A stretch of DNA of 32,000 bases from an uncultured bacterium (GTDB taxonomy: Bacteria; Auribacterota; JACPWU01), in assembly GCA_964640155.1 (NCBI GenBank), contig CAZXEQ010000006.1, positions 39,013-71,012 on the forward strand, read 5' to 3'. Positions 5,763 through 24,961 of the stretch are shown here, in pieces (position 1 is the stretch's first letter; each line of letters opens with the position of its first letter). Made by a program: the position numbers and the translations under genes. The notes below the pieces were generated by a model. That model saw only the letters and a program-made list of their open reading frames with translations. It had not been told where the DNA came from and did no database searches.

Positions 5763-7297
5763 TGATGAAAAAACTTGGGCCTATTTTTACACTTATTGTC
5801 GTTTTGGTTGGAGCATGGCTTGTTTGGCAATGGGGATTTTGCCGATTTTATGTACCACCCAATCACATGGCTATCTTAATATCAAAATCTGGAAAACCTC
5901 TTGAACCAGGGCAGATTCTTGCAAGAAAAGGCCAACGAGGTATTTTACTAGATGTTTTAAGTGAAGGGCGTCATTTTAGAAATCCTCTTTTTTATGAATG
6001 GAAAATCACGCCCGTCACCATCATTCCCCCAGGCAAAATTGGCATTGTGACTTCAAAAGTAGGAACAGATTTGCCTACAGGTGAATTTTTAGCAGATGAA
6101 GGGCAAAAAGGAATTTGGAGAAAAATCCTAGGACCTGGGAAATATCGTTTAAATCCTGAAGGATTCAATATTGATGTTGTAGATGCCCTTACCATTCCTA
6201 TTGGATACGTCGGAGTCATTACTTCGTTGGATGGGAAGGCTCCTACACACGGAACTTTTACACAAGCCGGAGAGCGTGGCGTTCGAAAAGATGTTTTACA
6301 ACCTGGCCTTTATTACATTAATCCCAAACAATTTAAAGTTGATGCTGTCGAAATAGGAATTAATCAGATCTCACTTCTCGAAGAAGCAGAAAGAGGACAA
6401 AGTCAAATTTTAAGTGGAAAAAATATTGAATTTCCTTCAAGCGATGGATTTGAAATTAAAATGGACACCACTGTGGAATTTGAACTATTGCCCGAGCATA
6501 TCTCGGCAACTTTTTCAAAATATGGAAATCTCGATGCTGTAGTTCATAAAATCATTCTTCCTCAAATTCTCTCCATTTCAAGGTTGAAAGGTTCAGCCTA
6601 TGGAGCAAGAGATTTTATTGTAGGAGAAGGACGCGAGAAGTTCCAAAGCGAATTCACTCAAGAATTAGAAGAAGTATTAAAAGAAAAAAACATTGAAATC
6701 CGATCTGCCTTAATCCGACATGTCACCGTCCCTGATCAAATTTTAAACCCTATTCAGCAAGCCAGTATTGCCCAAACTCGAAATTTAACAAATATAGAAA
6801 GACAAACAACGGCTAAAAAGCTTGCTGAACTCAATACAGAAAAAAGCTTAATTGATCAAAGACGAGAACAAATCCAACAAGAAACCATTAAGCTAAAAGC
6901 TGAAATCAAGGCGGATCAAGACAAGGAAGTTGCTCAAATCAATGCTGAAACTGAACGACAGGTTTCTGAAATTGAAAAAGAAACAGCGTTGATTCAAGCA
7001 GAGATCACTCGAAAACTTGGGAAAGTTGATGCTGATATTATTCAAATGATTGGAGAAGCAAGGGCTGAAGGTTTTAAATTAAAAGTAGAAGCCTTTAAAG
7101 ATCCTAAGGCCTATTCTTATTATGTCCTCTCTCGTCGATTACCTAAAGATCTCAAAATAGTCATCGCCCATGCTGGACCTGGAACTCTTTGGACAGATCT
7201 TGATAAATCGATCACAGGTCCTTTGCCTGGATTAAATACAGTTAAGAAAACCCAATCTCTTACCATCACTCCTTCAGGGATTAAAGTTTCAGAATAA
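5762..7297 (+). CDS. SPFH/Band-7 domain membrane protein, tandem paralog
   Basis: Same architecture and repeat motif as 4242-5762. Its start overlaps the upstream stop (TAATG), suggesting translational coupling. Confidence 0.8.
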   Translation: MMKKLGPIFTLIVVLVGAWLVWQWGFCRFYVPPNHMAILISKSGKPLEPGQILARKGQRGILLDVLSEGRHFRNPLFYEWKITPVTIIPPGKIGIVTSKVGTDLPTGEFLADEGQKGIWRKILGPGKYRLNPEGFNIDVVDALTIPIGYVGVITSLDGKAPTHGTFTQAGERGVRKDVLQPGLYYINPKQFKVDAVEIGINQISLLEEAERGQSQILSGKNIEFPSSDGFEIKMDTTVEFELLPEHISATFSKYGNLDAVVHKIILPQILSISRLKGSAYGARDFIVGEGREKFQSEFTQELEEVLKEKNIEIRSALIRHVTVPDQILNPIQQASIAQTRNLTNIERQTTAKKLAELNTEKSLIDQRREQIQQETIKLKAEIKADQDKEVAQINAETERQVSEIEKETALIQAEITRKLGKVDADIIQMIGEARAEGFKLKVEAFKDPKAYSYYVLSRRLPKDLKIVIAHAGPGTLWTDLDKSITGPLPGLNTVKKTQSLTITPSGIKVSE

Positions 7298-19634: not shown

Positions 19635-20279
19635 ATGCAATTCGACCTCTTTGATGGAACTCAAAATAACGTTTTGTCCTCAAAAACTTATGAAGAATTC
19701 CGCAAAAATTTTTTGGCTGCTGGCTGCACCAAATGTGATCTTCATGAAGGTCGTACCAATCTCGTCATTGATCGAGGCAATCCCCATACTGAAATTGTGG
19801 TTATTGGAGAAGCGCCTGGTGAGAATGAAGACTTACAAGGTAAAGCTTTTGTAGGAAGGGCTGGTCAACTTTTAGATAAAATTATGGCTGCGATTGGCCT
19901 TGAGACCAATAAAGACATGCTTATCATCAATGTTGTCAAATGCCGCCCCCCAGAAAACCGAGCCCCTGTTGCAATTGAAGCTCAAACTTGCCGACCTTAT
20001 CTTCAACGCCAATTAGAATTAGTTAAACCAAAAATTATTTTGCTTTTAGGTGCAACAGCTTTAAAACACATGATTCCAGAGAAAAAGAAATTTTCTATGG
20101 AACAGGAAGCAGGGAATTTCTTCACTGATTCACATTATCCAGGAATACAATTTATGGTGCTTTATCACCCCGCCTATCTTCTCTATGATCCTCGAAAGAA
20201 AGAAACCATGTGGCAGCATGTTAAGAAACTCAGAGATTTTTTAGGATTAAAGCGAACAGAAGAAGCAAGAAATTTTTAA
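19635..20279 (+). CDS. uracil-DNA glycosylase, family 4
   Basis: Motifs VVIGEAPGENED and GKAFVGRAGQLLD, plus the C-terminal HPAYLL motif. Confidence 0.9.
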   Translation: MQFDLFDGTQNNVLSSKTYEEFRKNFLAAGCTKCDLHEGRTNLVIDRGNPHTEIVVIGEAPGENEDLQGKAFVGRAGQLLDKIMAAIGLETNKDMLIINVVKCRPPENRAPVAIEAQTCRPYLQRQLELVKPKIILLLGATALKHMIPEKKKFSMEQEAGNFFTDSHYPGIQFMVLYHPAYLLYDPRKKETMWQHVKKLRDFLGLKRTEEARNF

Positions 20280-20545
20280 ATCACTCCACCTTCTTGATAA
20301 AATTTCACCAATTCTTGATACCCACCAATCAATTTATCATTCACAAAAATCTGAGGCACTGTTTTCATATTACTTTTCTTTTCAAGCTCATCCCACATCT
20401 CTTCTCTATTCGTAATATCCATTTCTTCAAAACTCACCCCTTTTGAGCGTAACAATTGCTTTGCTCGAGCGCAAAAGGGGCAAAATTCAATGGTATAAAC
20501 AATAACTTTTTTTGGTTCCATAAAAGTTGAATTCCTCTCATACAA
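20276..20545 (-). CDS. glutaredoxin
   Basis: 89 aa. CPFC active site, then TVPQIFVNDKLIGGY. Confidence 0.9.
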   Translation of the reverse strand: MYERNSTFMEPKKVIVYTIEFCPFCARAKQLLRSKGVSFEEMDITNREEMWDELEKKSNMKTVPQIFVNDKLIGGYQELVKFYQEGGVI

Positions 20546-20598
20546 AATATTTTTTCATCATGCTATACTTCTCTTTAAAATAATTCCAGGAGGAAGTC

Positions 20599-21072
20599 GT
20601 GGCGTCTCAAAAATATTGGCTTATGAAAAGCGAAGCTCTTGATTATTCAATCGATGATTTTGCAAAAGATAAGCGTAGTGACTGGCATGGTGTACGGAAT
20701 TATCAAGCACGAAACTTTATGCGCGATGAGATGAAAGTAGGAGATCTCATTCTTTTTTATCATTCCAATGCTAATCCATCAGGAATTGCAGGTCTTGGAG
20801 AAGTAATTCGAACGGGTTATCCGGATTTTACACAGTTTGATTCTAAGAGCGAATATTACGACAAAAAAGCGACCAAAGAAAAACCTATTTGGTATATGGT
20901 AGATATTCAATTCAAAGAAAAATTCCCTCACTTTATTTCTTTAGAAGAATTAAAGAGAAATAAAACCCTTCAAAATATGCTCTTGATTCGTCACGGAAGA
21001 CTTTCAGTACAACCTGTAGAAGAAGAACATTTTAAGATTATTCAGAAAATAGGATATACTTATACGAATTAA
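20599..21072 (+). CDS. EVE (PUA-like) domain protein
   Basis: GTG start preceded by AGGAGG. Motifs YWLMKSE, W.GVRNYQARNFMRDEMKVGD and ILFYHSN. Confidence 0.85.
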   Translation: MASQKYWLMKSEALDYSIDDFAKDKRSDWHGVRNYQARNFMRDEMKVGDLILFYHSNANPSGIAGLGEVIRTGYPDFTQFDSKSEYYDKKATKEKPIWYMVDIQFKEKFPHFISLEELKRNKTLQNMLLIRHGRLSVQPVEEEHFKIIQKIGYTYTN

Positions 21073-21087
21073 AAAATTTTTATTTCA

Positions 21088-21117
21088 TCAAATACTCTTT
21101 CTAAAAAGAGTATTTGA
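21088..21117 (+). terminator. perfect 13-bp hairpin downstream of the EVE gene (probable terminator or RNA-stability element)
   Basis: TCAAATACTCTTT-CTAA-AAAGAGTATTTGA, starting 16 nt after the stop codon. No clear T-tract on the plus strand, so the terminator call is tentative. Confidence 0.5.
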
Positions 21118-21166
21118 TCATAGCAAAAAATAATTCTATACTTTTTTATCTAACGGAGGGTTTTGA

Positions 21167-21325
21167 ATGAATACTTCTAACATTTTAAATTCCAATCAAT
21201 TGATTTTAATTTCCAAAGAAGAGAAGAAGTTGTGGCAAAAGCCTAGTATTCTTGTACTGTCCCTTAATGATACAGAAGGAGGGATTATTCATTCTCCTCC
21301 AGAAGATGTAACGTTTTCCAGTTAG
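21167..21325 (+). CDS. small ORF (52 aa) resembling a lasso-peptide/RiPP precursor
   Basis: Too short for the supplied ORF track. SD GGAGGG lies 6 nt upstream of the ATG. Translation: MNTSNILNSNQLILISKEEKKLWQKPSILVLSLNDTEGGIIHSPPEDVTFSS. See findings. Confidence 0.5.
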   Translation: MNTSNILNSNQLILISKEEKKLWQKPSILVLSLNDTEGGIIHSPPEDVTFSS

Positions 21326-21370
21326 AATCAAAAACTAAGCTCTACGGTTTATTTTCGATTGCAATAAATA

Positions 21371-21769
21371 TCAGCACGAATGCAAAGCAATACGATTCCC
21401 TTCGCTATCCAAAACAACGGCTCTAAAACCATAGGGGGCAATAGAATGTTTTTCTTGAAGAATTTTTCCACCATTTGCCTTAGCTGCTTTAATTGCATCA
21501 TCCAGTCTTCCATTTGTATTTAAATAAATTAAAACACCTTGTCCAGAAGGAACGTTTCCCTCAGTTTTTACTAAGCATGCACCTATTCCTTCCCCGGCAT
21601 GAGGAAGAACTCCTATGGCAAAATCAGGCATTTCTTCTTTTATTATTTTTGCTCCAATGACTGCAGAATAAAATCGAATGGCTCGATCTAAATCAACCAC
21701 TGGAATATCACACCAAACAATTTGATTAATAGAGCATTCTTTTTCGGATTTCAATTCAGTGTCTTTCAT
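21371..21769 (-). CDS. VOC (glyoxalase/bleomycin-resistance/dioxygenase) family protein
   Basis: 132 aa. The N-terminal W.DIPV.DLDRAIRFY motif and the overall pattern are typical of small VOC proteins. Confidence 0.8.
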   Translation of the reverse strand: MKDTELKSEKECSINQIVWCDIPVVDLDRAIRFYSAVIGAKIIKEEMPDFAIGVLPHAGEGIGACLVKTEGNVPSGQGVLIYLNTNGRLDDAIKAAKANGGKILQEKHSIAPYGFRAVVLDSEGNRIALHSC

Positions 21770-21814
21770 AAAATTTCTCCTAATTTATTTTTTAAAATTG
21801 ACGGCTAAGATCTA

Positions 21815-22264
21815 TTAGCTGATTTTAGATTTTAATTCGACGATAGCAATAATTTCTTCTTTTCCTAAGACATTCTCATAATGATATTCATCTTTATTAC
21901 GTTCTAATTTCTTTTGAGTTGATAAATCAATTTTTAAGAGAACTAAATAGGAATGTCCTTCTATCAAATACTTAGGAATATGCTTTTTAGCAGAAATTTC
22001 ACTTTCAATTCCAATATAATTACGCGTCATTTTTCCTTTATAAATATTTTCAATCTTAAATCCCTCCAACAAAAACCATGTTCTGCTTCCATCAGGTCTA
22101 AAAATACAGGGGCTTCTTCCTTCAGTATAAGTACCTGAGAAAATGATATTGGCTTGCTTAATTAAATTTCTAGGTGCTTTAGAAATTTCAGCAGGCATTT
22201 GAGAATTAGCAAAAAGAGGATTCACTATAAGCATAAAAAACACAAAAACATATATATTACGCAT
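21815..22264 (-). CDS. small secreted protein, paralog A
   Basis: The tracked ORF (21815-22405) is a chimera. By comparison with paralog B, the likely start is ATG 22264 (MRNIYVFVFFMLIVNPLFA signal peptide). ATG 22279 is an alternative. Confidence 0.65.
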   Translation of the reverse strand: MRNIYVFVFFMLIVNPLFANSQMPAEISKAPRNLIKQANIIFSGTYTEGRSPCIFRPDGSRTWFLLEGFKIENIYKGKMTRNYIGIESEISAKKHIPKYLIEGHSYLVLLKIDLSTQKKLERNKDEYHYENVLGKEEIIAIVELKSKIS

Positions 22265-22294
22265 GATGTTGCCTAACATGAAAAGAGTAAAAAT

Positions 22295-22308
22295 TGGAGG
22301 TGGCGGGA
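22295..22308 (-). repeat. copy 3 of the tmRNA T-loop-to-3'-end 14-mer (att-like)
   Basis: TGGAGGTGGCGGGA on the plus strand, identical to 23218-23231 and 22971-22984. Confidence 0.85.
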
Positions 22309-22405
22309 ATCGAATCGCTCGATCTAAATCAAGCACTGGAATATCACACCAAACAATTTGATTAATAGAGCATTCTTTTTCGGATTTCAATTCAGTGTCT
22401 TTCAT
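22308..22405 (-). pseudogene. duplicated 5' fragment (about 33 codons) of the VOC gene
   Basis: MKDTELKSEKECSINQIVWCDIPVLDLDRAIRF matches the N-terminus of 21371-21769 apart from one residue. The fragment then runs into the tmRNA-derived 14-mer. Confidence 0.85.
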
Positions 22406-22450
22406 AAAATTTCTCCTAATTTATTTTTTAAAATTGACGGCTAAGATCTA

Positions 22451-22903
22451 TTAGCTGATTTTAGATTTTAATTCGACGATAGCAATAATTTCTTCTTTTC
22501 CTAAGACATTCTCATAATGATATTCATCTTTATTACGTTCTAATTTCTTTTGAGTTGATAAATCAATTTTTAAGAGAACTAAATAGGAATGTCCTTCCAC
22601 CAAATACTTAGGAATATGCTTTTTAGCAAAAATTTCACTCTCAATTCCAATATAATTACGCTTTATTTTTCCTTTATAAATATTTTCAACCTTAAATCCC
22701 TTCAACAAAAACCATGCTCTGGTTCCATCAGGTCTAAAAACACAAGGGCTCCTTCCTTCAGTATAAATACCAGAAAAAATAACATTGGCTGACTTTACTA
22801 AATTCTTAGGAAGACTAGAGAATTCAGGAGGTAATTTATCTGAAGCTACAAGAGATTGGAAAATAAACATAAAAAAGATAAAAGCTGATAAAACATTTTT
22901 CAT
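22451..22903 (-). CDS. small secreted protein, paralog B
   Basis: 150 aa with signal peptide MKNVLSAFIFFMFIFQSLVA. The C-terminal 49 residues and the downstream DNA are identical to paralog A. Confidence 0.75.
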   Translation of the reverse strand: MKNVLSAFIFFMFIFQSLVASDKLPPEFSSLPKNLVKSANVIFSGIYTEGRSPCVFRPDGTRAWFLLKGFKVENIYKGKIKRNYIGIESEIFAKKHIPKYLVEGHSYLVLLKIDLSTQKKLERNKDEYHYENVLGKEEIIAIVELKSKIS

Positions 22904-22970
22904 AATTCTATTTTAGGATGCTCTTCATGACTTTTTAAACAGCAGTTCCTTCACATAAAAATAAAAGAAT

Positions 22971-22984
22971 TGGAGGTGGCGGGA
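22971..22984 (-). repeat. copy 2 of the tmRNA T-loop-to-3'-end 14-mer (att-like)
   Basis: TGGAGGTGGCGGGA on the plus strand. Together with the genuine tmRNA 3' end, it bounds element X. Confidence 0.85.
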
Positions 22985-23217
22985 TCGGCGCCTACGTTTC
23001 AGGCTAGCCGCTCTGCGGCATGGCCTCTTCGAGGCCTACGCATCCACTTCGGTCGGCCATTCGATGTTCGCAGCGGTCGTCCATCTACCACCGGTAGATG
23101 GTCATTATATATTCTGACTTCGTCAGATAACTCACGTCTCCCTTCGACTCCTGCACATTTGCAAAGGCCTATATTGTGCTGAAGTTTCTGGACCCTAGAT
23201 TTATCTTGGAATAACAA
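22985..23217 (-). mobile_element. element X: 233-nt GC-rich, hairpin-dense insert immediately 3' of tmRNA (miniature integrative-element remnant or unknown structured RNA)
   Basis: Flanked by 14-nt direct repeats. Hairpins at 23022-23036 (GGCCTC-TTC-GAGGCC), 23081-23101 (CCATCTACC-ACC-GGTAGATGG) and 23114-23126 (CTGAC-TTC-GTCAG). Its composition contrasts with the AT-rich flanks. Confidence 0.45.
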
Positions 23218-23618
23218 TGGAGGTGGCGGGAGTCGAACCCGCGTCCTAGAGTATTTCTTACGAGAGCCTCTACATGCTTAGGCTATTTTTTGGATCTCAT
23301 CCTTTTAGACTCCAACAGTCAGGATTCTAAAAGGACCAGTCGGCATGCGGTCTCCTCGCCATGAATGCGCCCACTCCATTCATGACCAGCCTGTTATGAG
23401 TCGCCTATTCAAGCCTCACAGACATAAGCCTGATAGACGTGGCTGACTAAGCAGCCAATGCCAACGTTCGAGGAGCGAACGAACCAATGTTCAACTTCTC
23501 AAACGGGATTACTTTCCCTGTATTGGCAAATAAATGTGCCAGGTGTTTTGAGAGGCCTCCTAGCAACCTCTGCATGCCACCCTCGTGTCCACACCCCAGT
23601 CGAATCCATTTCACCCCC
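23218..23618 (-). ncRNA. ssrA: tmRNA (SsrA), one-piece, about 401 nt, CCA not encoded
   Basis: The minus strand starts GGGGGTGAAATGGATTCGACTGGGG and ends GGACGCGGGTTCGACTCCCGCCACCTCCA (T-arm plus acceptor). The 5' GGGGGUG pairs with CACCUCC. Tag frame 23527-23447: GCC AAU ... GCA UUG GCU GCU UAG. smpB lies 0.9 kb upstream. Confidence 0.93.
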
Positions 23619-23701
23619 GAAAAAGCTGAGATTTGCGATTCGTCTAGAAAATTTTCAAAGAGCCTAACAACTATTCCACTGAGCTTTAATTATACCATAT
23701 T

Positions 23702-24271
23702 TTAAGCTTTTGAAAGCAACCGATTAAAACTTTGAAGAAGTTTATCCCCTCCCACTTCATCAAGTTTTTTTAACCATTCTTGGATATAGGTAACGTCGAT
23801 TTTCTTTTTCTGACGCTGAATAATTCCTTTTAAATCCTCATAATCTTTTGCTCTGGTACTTGCAATCTTGTGAATAATTAAATCTTCAGGACTTATTAAT
23901 TTTATCTTTAAATTATCTATTTTCTTTATTCGACCTCTACGAATTGCAGAAAATTCAAGAGAGTTTTCTGCAATAATAACATCCAGCTTCCCCAAAATAT
24001 TTCCTTTTTGAAACTTCAGGGGAATAACACCCGTTTTTTTTACAATCTTCATCGTTTCTTTAAAAGAAGGAGAAAAACCAAATTTTTTAATCTTCTTTAA
24101 AAAATCTTCTGCCTTTGCTTTATCCAAAACGACGTTAATATCAACGTCTAAAGTCATGCGAGGCTCTCCATAAATTGAAACAGCTATTCCGCCTATAATC
24201 ACATAAGGAATTTTTTCAGAAGAGAGAAATCGAGTAAGAGATTGAATCAAAGATTCAAATTGAAGACTCAT
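23702..24271 (-). CDS. minimal nucleotidyltransferase-fold protein (toxin-antitoxin-like cassette component)
   Basis: 189 aa. NTase signature IIGGIAVSIYGEPRMTLDVDINV (hGG...DxD). ATGA overlap with the upstream 72-aa ORF. Confidence 0.7.
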   Translation of the reverse strand: MSLQFESLIQSLTRFLSSEKIPYVIIGGIAVSIYGEPRMTLDVDINVVLDKAKAEDFLKKIKKFGFSPSFKETMKIVKKTGVIPLKFQKGNILGKLDVIIAENSLEFSAIRRGRIKKIDNLKIKLISPEDLIIHKIASTRAKDYEDLKGIIQRQKKKIDVTYIQEWLKKLDEVGGDKLLQSFNRLLSKA

Positions 24272-24486
24272 TTTATCCTTCCAAATAAAGTGTGAATTTT
24301 AGCCAAATGCTTAATCTTGGCTTCATCAAACTTTCTATTTTTAAAAACCCAGCCTGCACGACTTGCAAAATTATAAAGTTCCTTAAATGCTTTAAAACCA
24401 TCCTTCACAGATAAATTCTTTAAAAACTTGCGTTTCTGTTCATCTTCAAATTGATGATAAATTTCCCATTTTTTCTCTCTTAGCAT
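24268..24486 (-). CDS. small basic protein, partner of the nucleotidyltransferase
   Basis: 72 aa. Starts 1 nt after the smpB stop codon and overlaps the NTase start (ATGA). No motif recognised. Confidence 0.6.
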   Translation of the reverse strand: MLREKKWEIYHQFEDEQKRKFLKNLSVKDGFKAFKELYNFASRAGWVFKNRKFDEAKIKHLAKIHTLFGRIK

Positions 24487-24487
24487 A

Positions 24488-24961
24488 TCAATTTCCCTTA
24501 AACTTTCGTCTCATGGCTGCTTGAGCTTCTCTATCCGCAATACGTTTTTTAAGATCTTCTCTTTTATCTATTTTTTGTTTTCCCTGAGCAAGGGCTATAG
24601 CTACTTTGATCTTCCCATTTTTTAGATAAACCGCTAGGGGAACAAGCGTAAAACCTTTTTGAGAAATCTGTCCAATCAATTTTTTAATTTCATTGAAATG
24701 CAAAAGAAGCTTTCTCTTTCTCAAAGGCTCATGATTGGCTATATTTCCAAATTCATACGGATCCACATGAAAATTATAAAGAAAGATCTCTCCATTCTCG
24801 ACTCGACCAAAGCTATCATTTAAATTGGCTTTATGAGCTCGAATGGATTTTACTTCTGTTCCTTGAAGGACAATCCCCGCTTCAAAAGTTTCCAAAATAG
24901 TATAATCATGTCGGGCCTTACGATTGTTCATTAAAACATTTGAATCTTTTTCAGAACTCAT
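24488..24961 (-). CDS. smpB: SsrA-binding protein
   Basis: 157 aa with the motifs NRKARHDY, GTEVKS and the C-terminal basic tail typical of SmpB. Confidence 0.95.
   Translation of the reverse strand: MSSEKDSNVLMNNRKARHDYTILETFEAGIVLQGTEVKSIRAHKANLNDSFGRVENGEIFLYNFHVDPYEFGNIANHEPLRKRKLLLHFNEIKKLIGQISQKGFTLVPLAVYLKNGKIKVAIALAQGKQKIDKREDLKKRIADREAQAAMRRKFKGN

Follow-up and report, generated by a model that had tools for sequence, protein, structure and literature searches.

A recurrent non-coding module behind the tmRNA gene, possibly a structured-RNA cassette

What is the GC-rich sequence that directly follows the gene for transfer-messenger RNA (tmRNA; ssrA) on contig CAZXEQ010000006.1 of an uncultured bacterium? 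In the 32-kb stretch of that contig analysed here, which we call the window, an earlier note had described a 233-nucleotide (nt), multi-hairpin segment after the tmRNA 3' end and had likened it to a T-arm whose loop holds a large structured insert. The segment, which we call X (23217..22985, minus strand), is real: every string quoted for it is present, its hairpins exceed those of all shuffles, and it is not an assembly artefact, because the identical sequence occurs in an independent assembly (Logan SRR8893623, locus L001). It is also non-coding, recurrent and absent from Rfam 15. We tentatively favour, at somewhat less than even confidence, the view that X is a copy of a recurrent non-coding ssrA-tail module, a structured RNA whose ends pair and whose tail would be terminated and trimmed like that of tmRNA.

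X lies between two copies of the end of ssrA. The gene itself (23618..23218, minus strand; tag ANTGKVIPFEKLNIGSFAPRTLALAA) has the complete standard form, as shown by ARAGORN and by a match to Rfam family RF00023 (175.6 bits, model positions 1-374), and because the tmRNA upstream of X is complete, the idea of an insert inside the T-arm loop had to be abandoned. The last 14 nt of tmRNA, TCCCGCCACCTCCA, occur exactly three times in the window, always on the minus strand (23231..23218, 22984..22971 and 22308..22295), with zero matches in any shuffle. Tail copy 1 (TTCGACTCCCGCCACCTCCA, 23218..23237, minus strand) comprises the T-loop, the 3' strands of the T-stem and acceptor, and the discriminator of the functional tmRNA. 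Tail copy 2 (22968..22987, minus strand), which reads CGA-TCCCGCCACCTCCA (22971-22987) and then ATT, forms the 3' boundary of the module and is one base short of the family consensus CGACTCCC.

On the tmRNA strand X opens with a 66-nt AT-rich leader that separates tmRNA from the module (23152..23217, minus strand) and in which we found no terminator-like or promoter-like consensus site; the co-orientation with ssrA that had been pointed out previously is confirmed. The leader is followed by the 5' boundary motif GGAGTCGAAG (23142..23151, minus strand), which is the reverse complement of tmRNA (C)TTCGACTCC and has this sole exact match in the window. Pairing had been proposed between the 5' segment of X and the repeated tail. 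The stretch GCAGGAGUCGAAG is indeed complementary, but the suggested combination of GCAGGA (23149-23154) with UCCCGC contains an A.C mismatch, and GGA(G)UCG/CGAUCC is the better pairing.

The GC-rich interior (22985..23141, minus strand) holds five perfect hairpins, all on the minus strand: a 9-bp hairpin (23081-23101), GGCCTC/GAGGCC (23022-23036), TCTGAC/GTCAGA (23113-23127), GCCGC/GCGGC (23007-23019) and GCCT/AGGC (22990-23004). The three stems listed in the earlier note are thus all present, but the one given as CTGAC/GTCAG is really 6 bp long, and there are two further hairpins. The summed perfect-stem length of X is 51, compared to 5.8 ± 6.8 in dinucleotide shuffles, a value reached by none of 2000; a stem of at least 9 bp arises in seven of 2000. 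For the sequence as a whole, the minimum free energy gives modest z-scores, -2.2 on the sense and -2.5 on the antisense strand. The GC content is 0.51-0.62 across 22950-23149, against a window mean of 37% and values of 0.22-0.38 in the genes that flank X.

Does X stand alone? The window was taken to come from an AT-rich environmental genome of the Chlamydiota. The best named matches of the SmpB protein encoded in the window (smpB, 24961..24488, minus strand) are from metagenome-assembled genomes (MAGs) of Chlamydiota, and homologues of SmpB led us to the ssrA loci in eight related lineages of Chlamydiota. Of these, six carry no module (L002, L003/4/5, L006, L007/8/9, L045/46 and L050/51), and in these a terminator or the next gene comes directly after tmRNA. 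One distant lineage, represented by two assemblies (L010/L011; GCA_016178055.1) and with an SmpB 66% identical, has a comparable element behind tmRNA, in which a 65-nt AT-rich leader is followed by CAGGGAGTCGAAG, GC-rich hairpins and the lineage's own tail variant GACTCCCACCACCTCCACCA. The 10-mer GGAGTCGAAG, complementary to the tmRNA T-loop/T-stem, is common to X and the L010 element. An interior like that of X was found in none of the eight lineages, and searches with blastn and nhmmer against the relatives' loci and the window matched only the 14-nt tail; there is no second copy of X in the window.

We derived a search pattern from X and L010, namely GGAGTCGAAG followed 101-161 nt later by a tmRNA-type tail, and scanned public collections with it. 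The scan of metagenomes gave three true matches (L020, L022 and L023) and two chance matches in coding sequence, while among genomes sampled one per species, five loci in four MAGs were true and 14 matches were due to chance. The chance matches fell in coding sequence or, in one case, in a tRNA gene. The true copies, about 10 in all, invariably adjoin a tmRNA gene or belong to an array with a tmRNA tail at its head; they have tmRNA orientation, with a full tmRNA gene directly upstream wherever the contig extends far enough. Besides the metagenome loci L020 and L022, they come from a Treponema sp. (L032), a member of the Clostridia (L035), a single Spirochaetota MAG (L037 and L042) and a member of the Treponemataceae (L039). 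Homologous copies, the absence of which the earlier note had named as one ground for rejecting its proposal, were found at loci in other genomes.

The family has a constant layout. The end of tmRNA is followed by a leader, by GGAGUCGAAG, by 100-160 nt of GC-rich hairpins, and by (C)GAC joined to the host's own tail. The segment GGAGUCGAAG is the reverse complement of the T-loop/T-stem and the invariant start of all copies. X and the copies at nine other loci lie 43-66 nt behind the tmRNA gene or the previous tandem unit, on the same strand. Measured from the end of tmRNA to GGAGTCG, the distances form two groups, 64-66 nt (window, L010, L022, L032 and L035) and 43-51 nt (L020, L023, L037/L042 and L039). 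The module tails track the host tmRNA: they carry CCCCC in L032 and L042, CCCAC with AUCUCC in L035, a CAAC T-loop in L039 and CCCAC in L010, and they have CCA where the host tmRNA encodes CCA. In L042, L035, L032 and L023 the repeated block runs 20-45 nt past tmRNA into the terminator. Terminator hairpins behind the module tail in L023, L035, L039 and L042 were read by eye, the scan tool having called none on the module strand.

Tandem copies are part of this picture. L023 has two, and L037 and L042 contain arrays in which whole 200-nt units are repeated and then followed by a truncated third unit. Orphan module starts close the arrays in L042 and L037 (GGAGTCGAAGGGCGAGCG|TCGAATTG; L042 1-70) and in L039 (GGGGGAGTCGAAC, 5895-5915). 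Upstream of the module array in L037 lies a junction of the island type, TTACA|TTCGACTCCCCCCACCTCCA (L037 501-540), with a repeat boundary that differs from that of the modules. No recombinase, integrase, transposase, TnpB or reverse transcriptase (RT) gene was found beside any module copy; the genes downstream of the modules include an amidase, murI, queC/E, lgt, a histidine kinase and a methyl-accepting chemotaxis protein, among others.

The copies other than X share a closing stem in which 5' GGAGUCG is complementary to 3' CGACUCC, and this pairing extends over 6-17 bp. It reaches a perfect 17-bp terminal inverted repeat in L042 (GGAGGUGGGGGGAGUCG / CGACUCCCCCCACCUCC), which by its sequence appears to mimic a continuous acceptor/T-stem helix, but with A3-U70; in L035 the complementarity of the ends is 13 of 14, with two G.U pairs. 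In the Treponema-type copies (L022, both copies of L023, L032, L039, L042 and L037) and in L020 the closing stem, P1, belongs to a common three-way junction, ordered as P1, an unpaired GAA linker, P2, a CG linker, P3 and the 3' strand of P1. P2 is a long arm made of a variable hairpin and a second hairpin with the loop CA(N)GGAUG, while P3 has GGA/GAA and GA/AA internal loops and an AGGAU loop and continues directly into the 3' strand of P1.

This fold is supported by covariation. Across 41 pairs in six Treponema-type copies, 99.5% were paired, compared to 80.6 ± 2.3% in shuffles and 38-46% with slid partners, in an alignment (A4) that was segmented by hand and fitted to the structure, so that these figures lean towards structure. 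Twenty pairs changed on both sides, a number reached by none of 500 shuffles. Although the sequences differ between copies, every stem remains perfectly self-complementary, and even the tandem copies of L023 differ by compensatory changes, such as GCCGCC/GGCGGC versus GCGCGC/GCGCGC. In the second of these copies (L023 228-512), some 190 nt of AT-rich sequence interrupt the loop of the first inner hairpin. The strand is indicated indirectly: the sense fold is more stable than the antisense fold in nine of ten copies, and the internal loops and conserved unpaired bases (GGA/GAA, GA/AA) are purine-rich on the tmRNA strand only; counting G.U against A.C pairs to fix the strand was uninformative. 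Two CA(N)GGAUG hairpin loops were seen per module, in L042 (321-471), L039 (5706-5855), L032 (2152-2282), L022 (7081-7230) and L023 (56-185), and none in X or L010. We take these loops to resemble the binding consensus of CsrA/RsmE (ANGGA in a loop).

Where does X stand in this family? Position, orientation and leader length agree, as do the exact 5' 10-mer and the 3' tail, and nothing else is shared. The covariance model R1, built on the Treponema-type core, scored 67-90 bits on its own kind, including copies left out of model building, and only weakly on L010 (27.7 bits) and L020 (25.6 bits). The covariation asked for in the earlier note is seen among the Treponema-type copies but does not support the hairpins of X itself, because no close homologue of its interior was found. 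For the 5' motif of X, the genuine tmRNA copy is a better pairing partner (9 bp) than tail copy 2. Judged from its sequence, X is best described as a divergent, peripheral member defined by its ends, and it is possibly a decaying copy.

How might such a module work? In the reading that we favour, it is a short cassette placed 43-66 nt past tmRNA, with an inverted copy of the T-loop/T-stem, GGAGUCGAA, first and a direct copy of the last 14-21 nt of tmRNA last. It would be transcribed as a 3' continuation of ssrA, by read-through or for want of a terminator. Co-transcription, already proposed in the earlier note, is expected in the window, since no terminator-like site lies between tmRNA and X; elsewhere expression would depend on read-through, since no sigma-70-like promoter was found in any of the five leaders scanned. 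Pairing of GGAGUCG with CGACUCC would close a GC-rich multi-hairpin domain and leave a 3' tail identical to that of tmRNA, and this tail, which at several loci has the same terminator behind it, could be ended and trimmed as that of tmRNA is. Recombination between the repeated tails would change copy number and so give rise to tandem arrays, truncated copies and losses. The product might act as a stable small RNA bearing the tmRNA tail, as a decoy or as a sponge.

Several observations weigh against this reading. Model R1 scored only 15.4 bits on X (E 0.6), over its last 75 nt alone, compared to 23.7 bits for the 3' end of tmRNA itself, and the Treponema-type core motifs (P2 GGG..CCC, CCCCGGCCCGGA and P3 with its GGA/GAA loop) are absent from X. 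The closing stem of X, GGA(G)UCG/CGAUCC, is 6 bp with a bulge, and carries a one-base deletion (CGA-UCC) and a mismatch; the sense and antisense folds of X are equally stable. No sigma-70-like promoter lies in any of the five leaders scanned, and in L039, one of the loci at which a terminator follows tmRNA, a strong terminator stands between tmRNA and the module. The family helices are nearly pure Watson-Crick (221 Watson-Crick pairs, 4 G.U and 5 A.C), which would also fit selection on DNA hairpins, and the alignment that supports them was fitted by hand. Finally, the distribution is patchy: the module occurs in two of the eight related Chlamydiota lineages, and the strict pattern in only 4 of about 185,000 species representatives, which is unusual for an important RNA.

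The DNA beyond tail copy 2 is also repetitive. A second repeat unit (22309..22967, minus strand) consists of ORF150a (22903..22451) and the first 99 nt of a glyoxalase/VOC gene, and runs up to tail copy 3. Taken with its tail copy, this makes a 676-nt unit (22292-22970, minus strand) that stands in tandem before ORF150b and the intact VOC gene; its final 300 nt are 99% identical to the next copy, whereas ORF150a and ORF150b, 78% identical overall, have diverged in their N-terminal halves. Tail copy 3 (TTCGATTCCCGCCACCTCCAATT, 22292..22314, minus strand) reads TTCGATTCCCGCCACCTCCA, unlike the TTCGACT of the window genome, and the same 20 nt form the tmRNA end in the relatives L006 and L007. It is fused to the truncated VOC gene within an 8-nt identity, ATTCGATT, shared with the intact VOC gene (21666-21679, minus strand), and from its sequence this junction looks like a secondary-site crossover in a T-loop-sized overlap. 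A 196-amino-acid (aa) open reading frame (ORF; 21815-22405, minus strand; NCBI protein P0122) runs from the truncated VOC start through tail copy 3 (...RFPPPPIF...) into ORF150b; it is a chimera and probably an annotation artefact. ORF150 itself (22451-22903, minus strand) encodes a small protein of an orphan family with an N-terminus resembling a signal peptide. Among 5.8 billion proteins, only itself, its paralogue and one 41% match in an unrelated contig (L049) were found; the L049 match is not at ssrA, and ORF150 led to no closer relative of X.

The other genes near X are housekeeping genes, including nuo, a murein ligase and an aminopeptidase. On the other side of ssrA, between it and smpB (23702-24486, minus strand), lie a 72-aa ORF and a DUF2204/DUF6036 (AbiEii-like) nucleotidyltransferase gene. 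The pair is also present in L007-L009 and absent from L002, L003 and L006, and it may be a toxin-antitoxin-like insertion. From ssrA to the conserved EVE/glutaredoxin/UDG genes (window 20276-23217), the gene content is wholly different from that of the closest relative, L002 (10923-13870): the L002 interval holds PEMT, a methyltransferase and DUF2490, and that of the window X, ORF150 twice and VOC. This interval is a replacement hotspot, and no integrase, transposase or recombinase domain was found among the scanned ORFs of the window.

We also asked whether X belongs to a known class. An Rfam search of 22000-24200 at E ≤ 10 returned only tmRNA, with no match to RF00028 or another ribozyme, and a search of eight member loci at E ≤ 1 returned only tmRNA and tRNA and again no RF00028; at the gathering thresholds, too, tmRNA and tRNA were the sole matches. 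This excludes group I introns, known small ribozymes and the omega-RNA-type families held by Rfam, and agrees with the earlier view that X is in no catalogued RNA family. A permuted tmRNA (RF04321) was rejected, as the match of 20.0 bits, against a gathering score of 47, covers only model positions 33-105 and arises from the tmRNA T-arm itself. Nor is X tRNA-like: ARAGORN calls no tRNA in it, the closing stem has A3-U70 and not G3.U70, and the internal N-CCA is inconsistent across members. A TnpB/omega-RNA or CRISPR-associated transposon (CAST) homing guide, with a scaffold and a 3' guide, was set aside, as there are no such genes nearby and no Rfam match; a retron, as there is no RT gene; and a resemblance of the 3' part of X to 5S RNA (GAAACG..UAG..CGCCGAU), as it has no Rfam support. 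X is not a miniature inverted-repeat transposable element (MITE), since the window has one copy and all copies found sit at ssrA, none of them dispersed. Nor does X match phages or plasmids: blastn with X found nothing in their sequences, and in 2.9 million viral contigs three scans yielded only chance matches, which fell in Pro/Gly-rich or tape-measure genes. In the literature no account of an ssrA-tail module was found, and a 2025 census of 97,179 tmRNA sequences recognizes three gene forms (standard, group I intron and permuted) and describes no conserved downstream element (PMC11915505).

Which other explanations could account for X? The main rival, which we judge unlikely if far from negligible, is that X is a miniature, non-autonomous integrative element of about 200-250 bp, similar to a cis-mobilizable element (CIME), with its tails as attL and attR and a tyrosine integrase acting in trans at the T-loop/3' end of ssrA; the hairpins would then serve as cargo or as architecture of the recombination site. 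The cassette is flanked by direct repeats of the ssrA 3' end, exact over 14 nt, which is the classic signature of an ssrA island (PMC3146451). Tandem arrays exist, the module is patchy among close relatives, and the interval from ssrA to EVE/glutaredoxin/UDG is hypervariable. The ends are identical across several phyla, and the join of tail copy 3 to VOC in the T-loop-like 8-nt ATTCGATT is what a secondary-site crossover within a 7-bp overlap would give. X plus its repeat, at 247 bp, is also about the size of a complete lambda-type attP. However, no integrase was found among the scanned ORFs of the window or beside any copy, and viral contigs, phages and plasmids gave no match. The repeat begins with (C)GAC, so that the 3' end of the module does not restore a normal T-arm-like core with its 7-nt spacer, whereas the true island junction in L037 begins with TTCGAC. 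The reach of the repeats into the terminator (L032, L035, L023 and L042) resembles segmental duplication, and compensatory evolution of a three-way junction is unexpected for att arms. A DNA-level site for a hairpin-DNA recombinase, folded like attC, invertible or cruciform, with inverted repeats of 7-19 bp around some 130-160 bp, would explain the perfect 17-bp terminal repeat of L042, the almost exclusively Watson-Crick stems and the variable interiors between conserved ends, as in attC sites. We consider it quite improbable, as the interior has the same orientation in all copies with no inversion polymorphism seen, the branched three-way junction and one-strand purine-rich internal loops are typical of RNA, and no integron integrase or invertase lies nearby.

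X could instead be inert, a remnant of foreign DNA of higher GC content left after deletion of a larger ssrA island, its likeness to other loci reflecting a shared att region. The damaged closing stem and unique interior of X fit this, as do the degenerate or truncated copies elsewhere (the first L037 copy and the truncated third units in L042, L037 and L039) and the clear rearrangement of the locus. Yet random deletion would not produce an identical 10-nt start, an identical end and a leader of 64-66 nt in five lineages of at least three phyla, and four to five perfect hairpins exceed all 2000 shuffles. X still exceeds the host in GC content by about 20 points, which means that it is recent or else constrained, and we regard the remnant explanation as improbable. 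A self-splicing intron or insert in the T-loop, with tail copy 2 as the real 3' exon, is hardly tenable and already contradicted. Group I introns do occupy the tmRNA T-loop in 883 sequences from 21 phyla (PMC11915505), the precedent that the earlier note had loosely invoked. In length, X plus its repeat (247 nt) would fit a small group I intron, given that the shortest intron-form gene known totals 545 bp. The precedent does not apply here: the tmRNA upstream of X is uninterrupted and scores at full length, no ribozyme match appeared even at the most permissive Rfam threshold, the possible boundaries lack both a U at -1 and a terminal G, and the family core is a three-way junction of 110-160 nt without a P3-P9 core. 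That X encodes a small protein has next to no likelihood. Open frames exist on both strands, of 70 aa and 72 aa, but both start with TTG, have no Pfam match at E ≤ 1 and were not called by the gene caller in L001; no reading frame is common to the family, in which indels fall in hairpins. In this the earlier note, which had taken X as non-coding despite its open frames, was right, and a coding function is already contradicted.

How does the module compare to known systems? Genomic islands at ssrA with tail repeats, a product of att duplication by a tyrosine integrase, are already well known, for example in Dehalococcoides (PMC3146451), and like the module, ssrA islands and prophages have a direct repeat of the tmRNA 3' end on both sides, tandem arrays at the same gene and a hypervariable flank. 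They differ in bringing kilobase-scale cargo, compared to a module insert of 180-250 bp (233 nt in X) without an integrase or any other gene, and the module repeat starts from (C)GAC and not from the whole T-loop, opens with an inverted copy and has a conserved fold. The group I intron form of tmRNA (PMC11915505) is likewise a small structured element at the T-loop region, scattered over many phyla; here, in contrast, tmRNA is uninterrupted, there is no group I core, the splice rules are unmet, and the part resembling a 3' exon is duplicated rather than split. Permuted tmRNA (RF04321) shares the order of T-arm/acceptor 3' strand, spacer and complementary segment, with weak partial cmscan matches over the junction (20-26 bits). 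The scores, however, fall well short of the gathering threshold of 47, tmRNA is present in its complete standard form, and neither a resume codon nor a tag frame exists in the module.

CIMEs and bacterial MITEs (Rickettsia palindromic and Correia elements) are, like the module, short non-coding sequences that form hairpins and have terminal inverted repeats; as may hold for the module too, they depend on functions supplied in trans and decay where they stand. The module, by contrast, is always behind ssrA and not dispersed, its ends copy the target gene and not transposase sites, and it shows compensatory evolution across species. Integron attC sites also have conserved inverted cores around a variable structured middle and form arrays beside one fixed site, but the module has no IntI and no RYYYAAC/GTTRRRY cores, and its fold is branched rather than a single bulged hairpin. 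With the intron and permuted forms of the tmRNA gene and with ssrA islands, the module has one trait each in common, yet by their defining features it belongs to none of them.

It is possible, though on balance unlikely, that the module represents a new class of structured RNA coupled to tmRNA, or else a new minimal site-specific mobile element that needs only folded ends. If it is a new RNA class, the tail copy, together with the complementary strand in some lineages, could build a minihelix like that of the acceptor/T-stem, which would let the machinery that processes tmRNA and tRNA ends cut out and finish the module. The RNA might then act in the control of trans-translation, as a decoy for factors that bind the tmRNA end, or as a protein sponge through its CA(N)GGAUG loops.

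In practice, extra tail copies and chimeric ORFs, such as the 196-aa protein across tail copy 3, can mislead pipelines for island mapping and gene calling. The gene concerned, ssrA, is the most heavily used integration site in bacteria, and a module found behind it in Chlamydiota, Spirochaetota and Clostridia would be either a new non-coding RNA, as a partner or by-product of the locus for trans-translation, or the smallest tenant of ssrA yet known.

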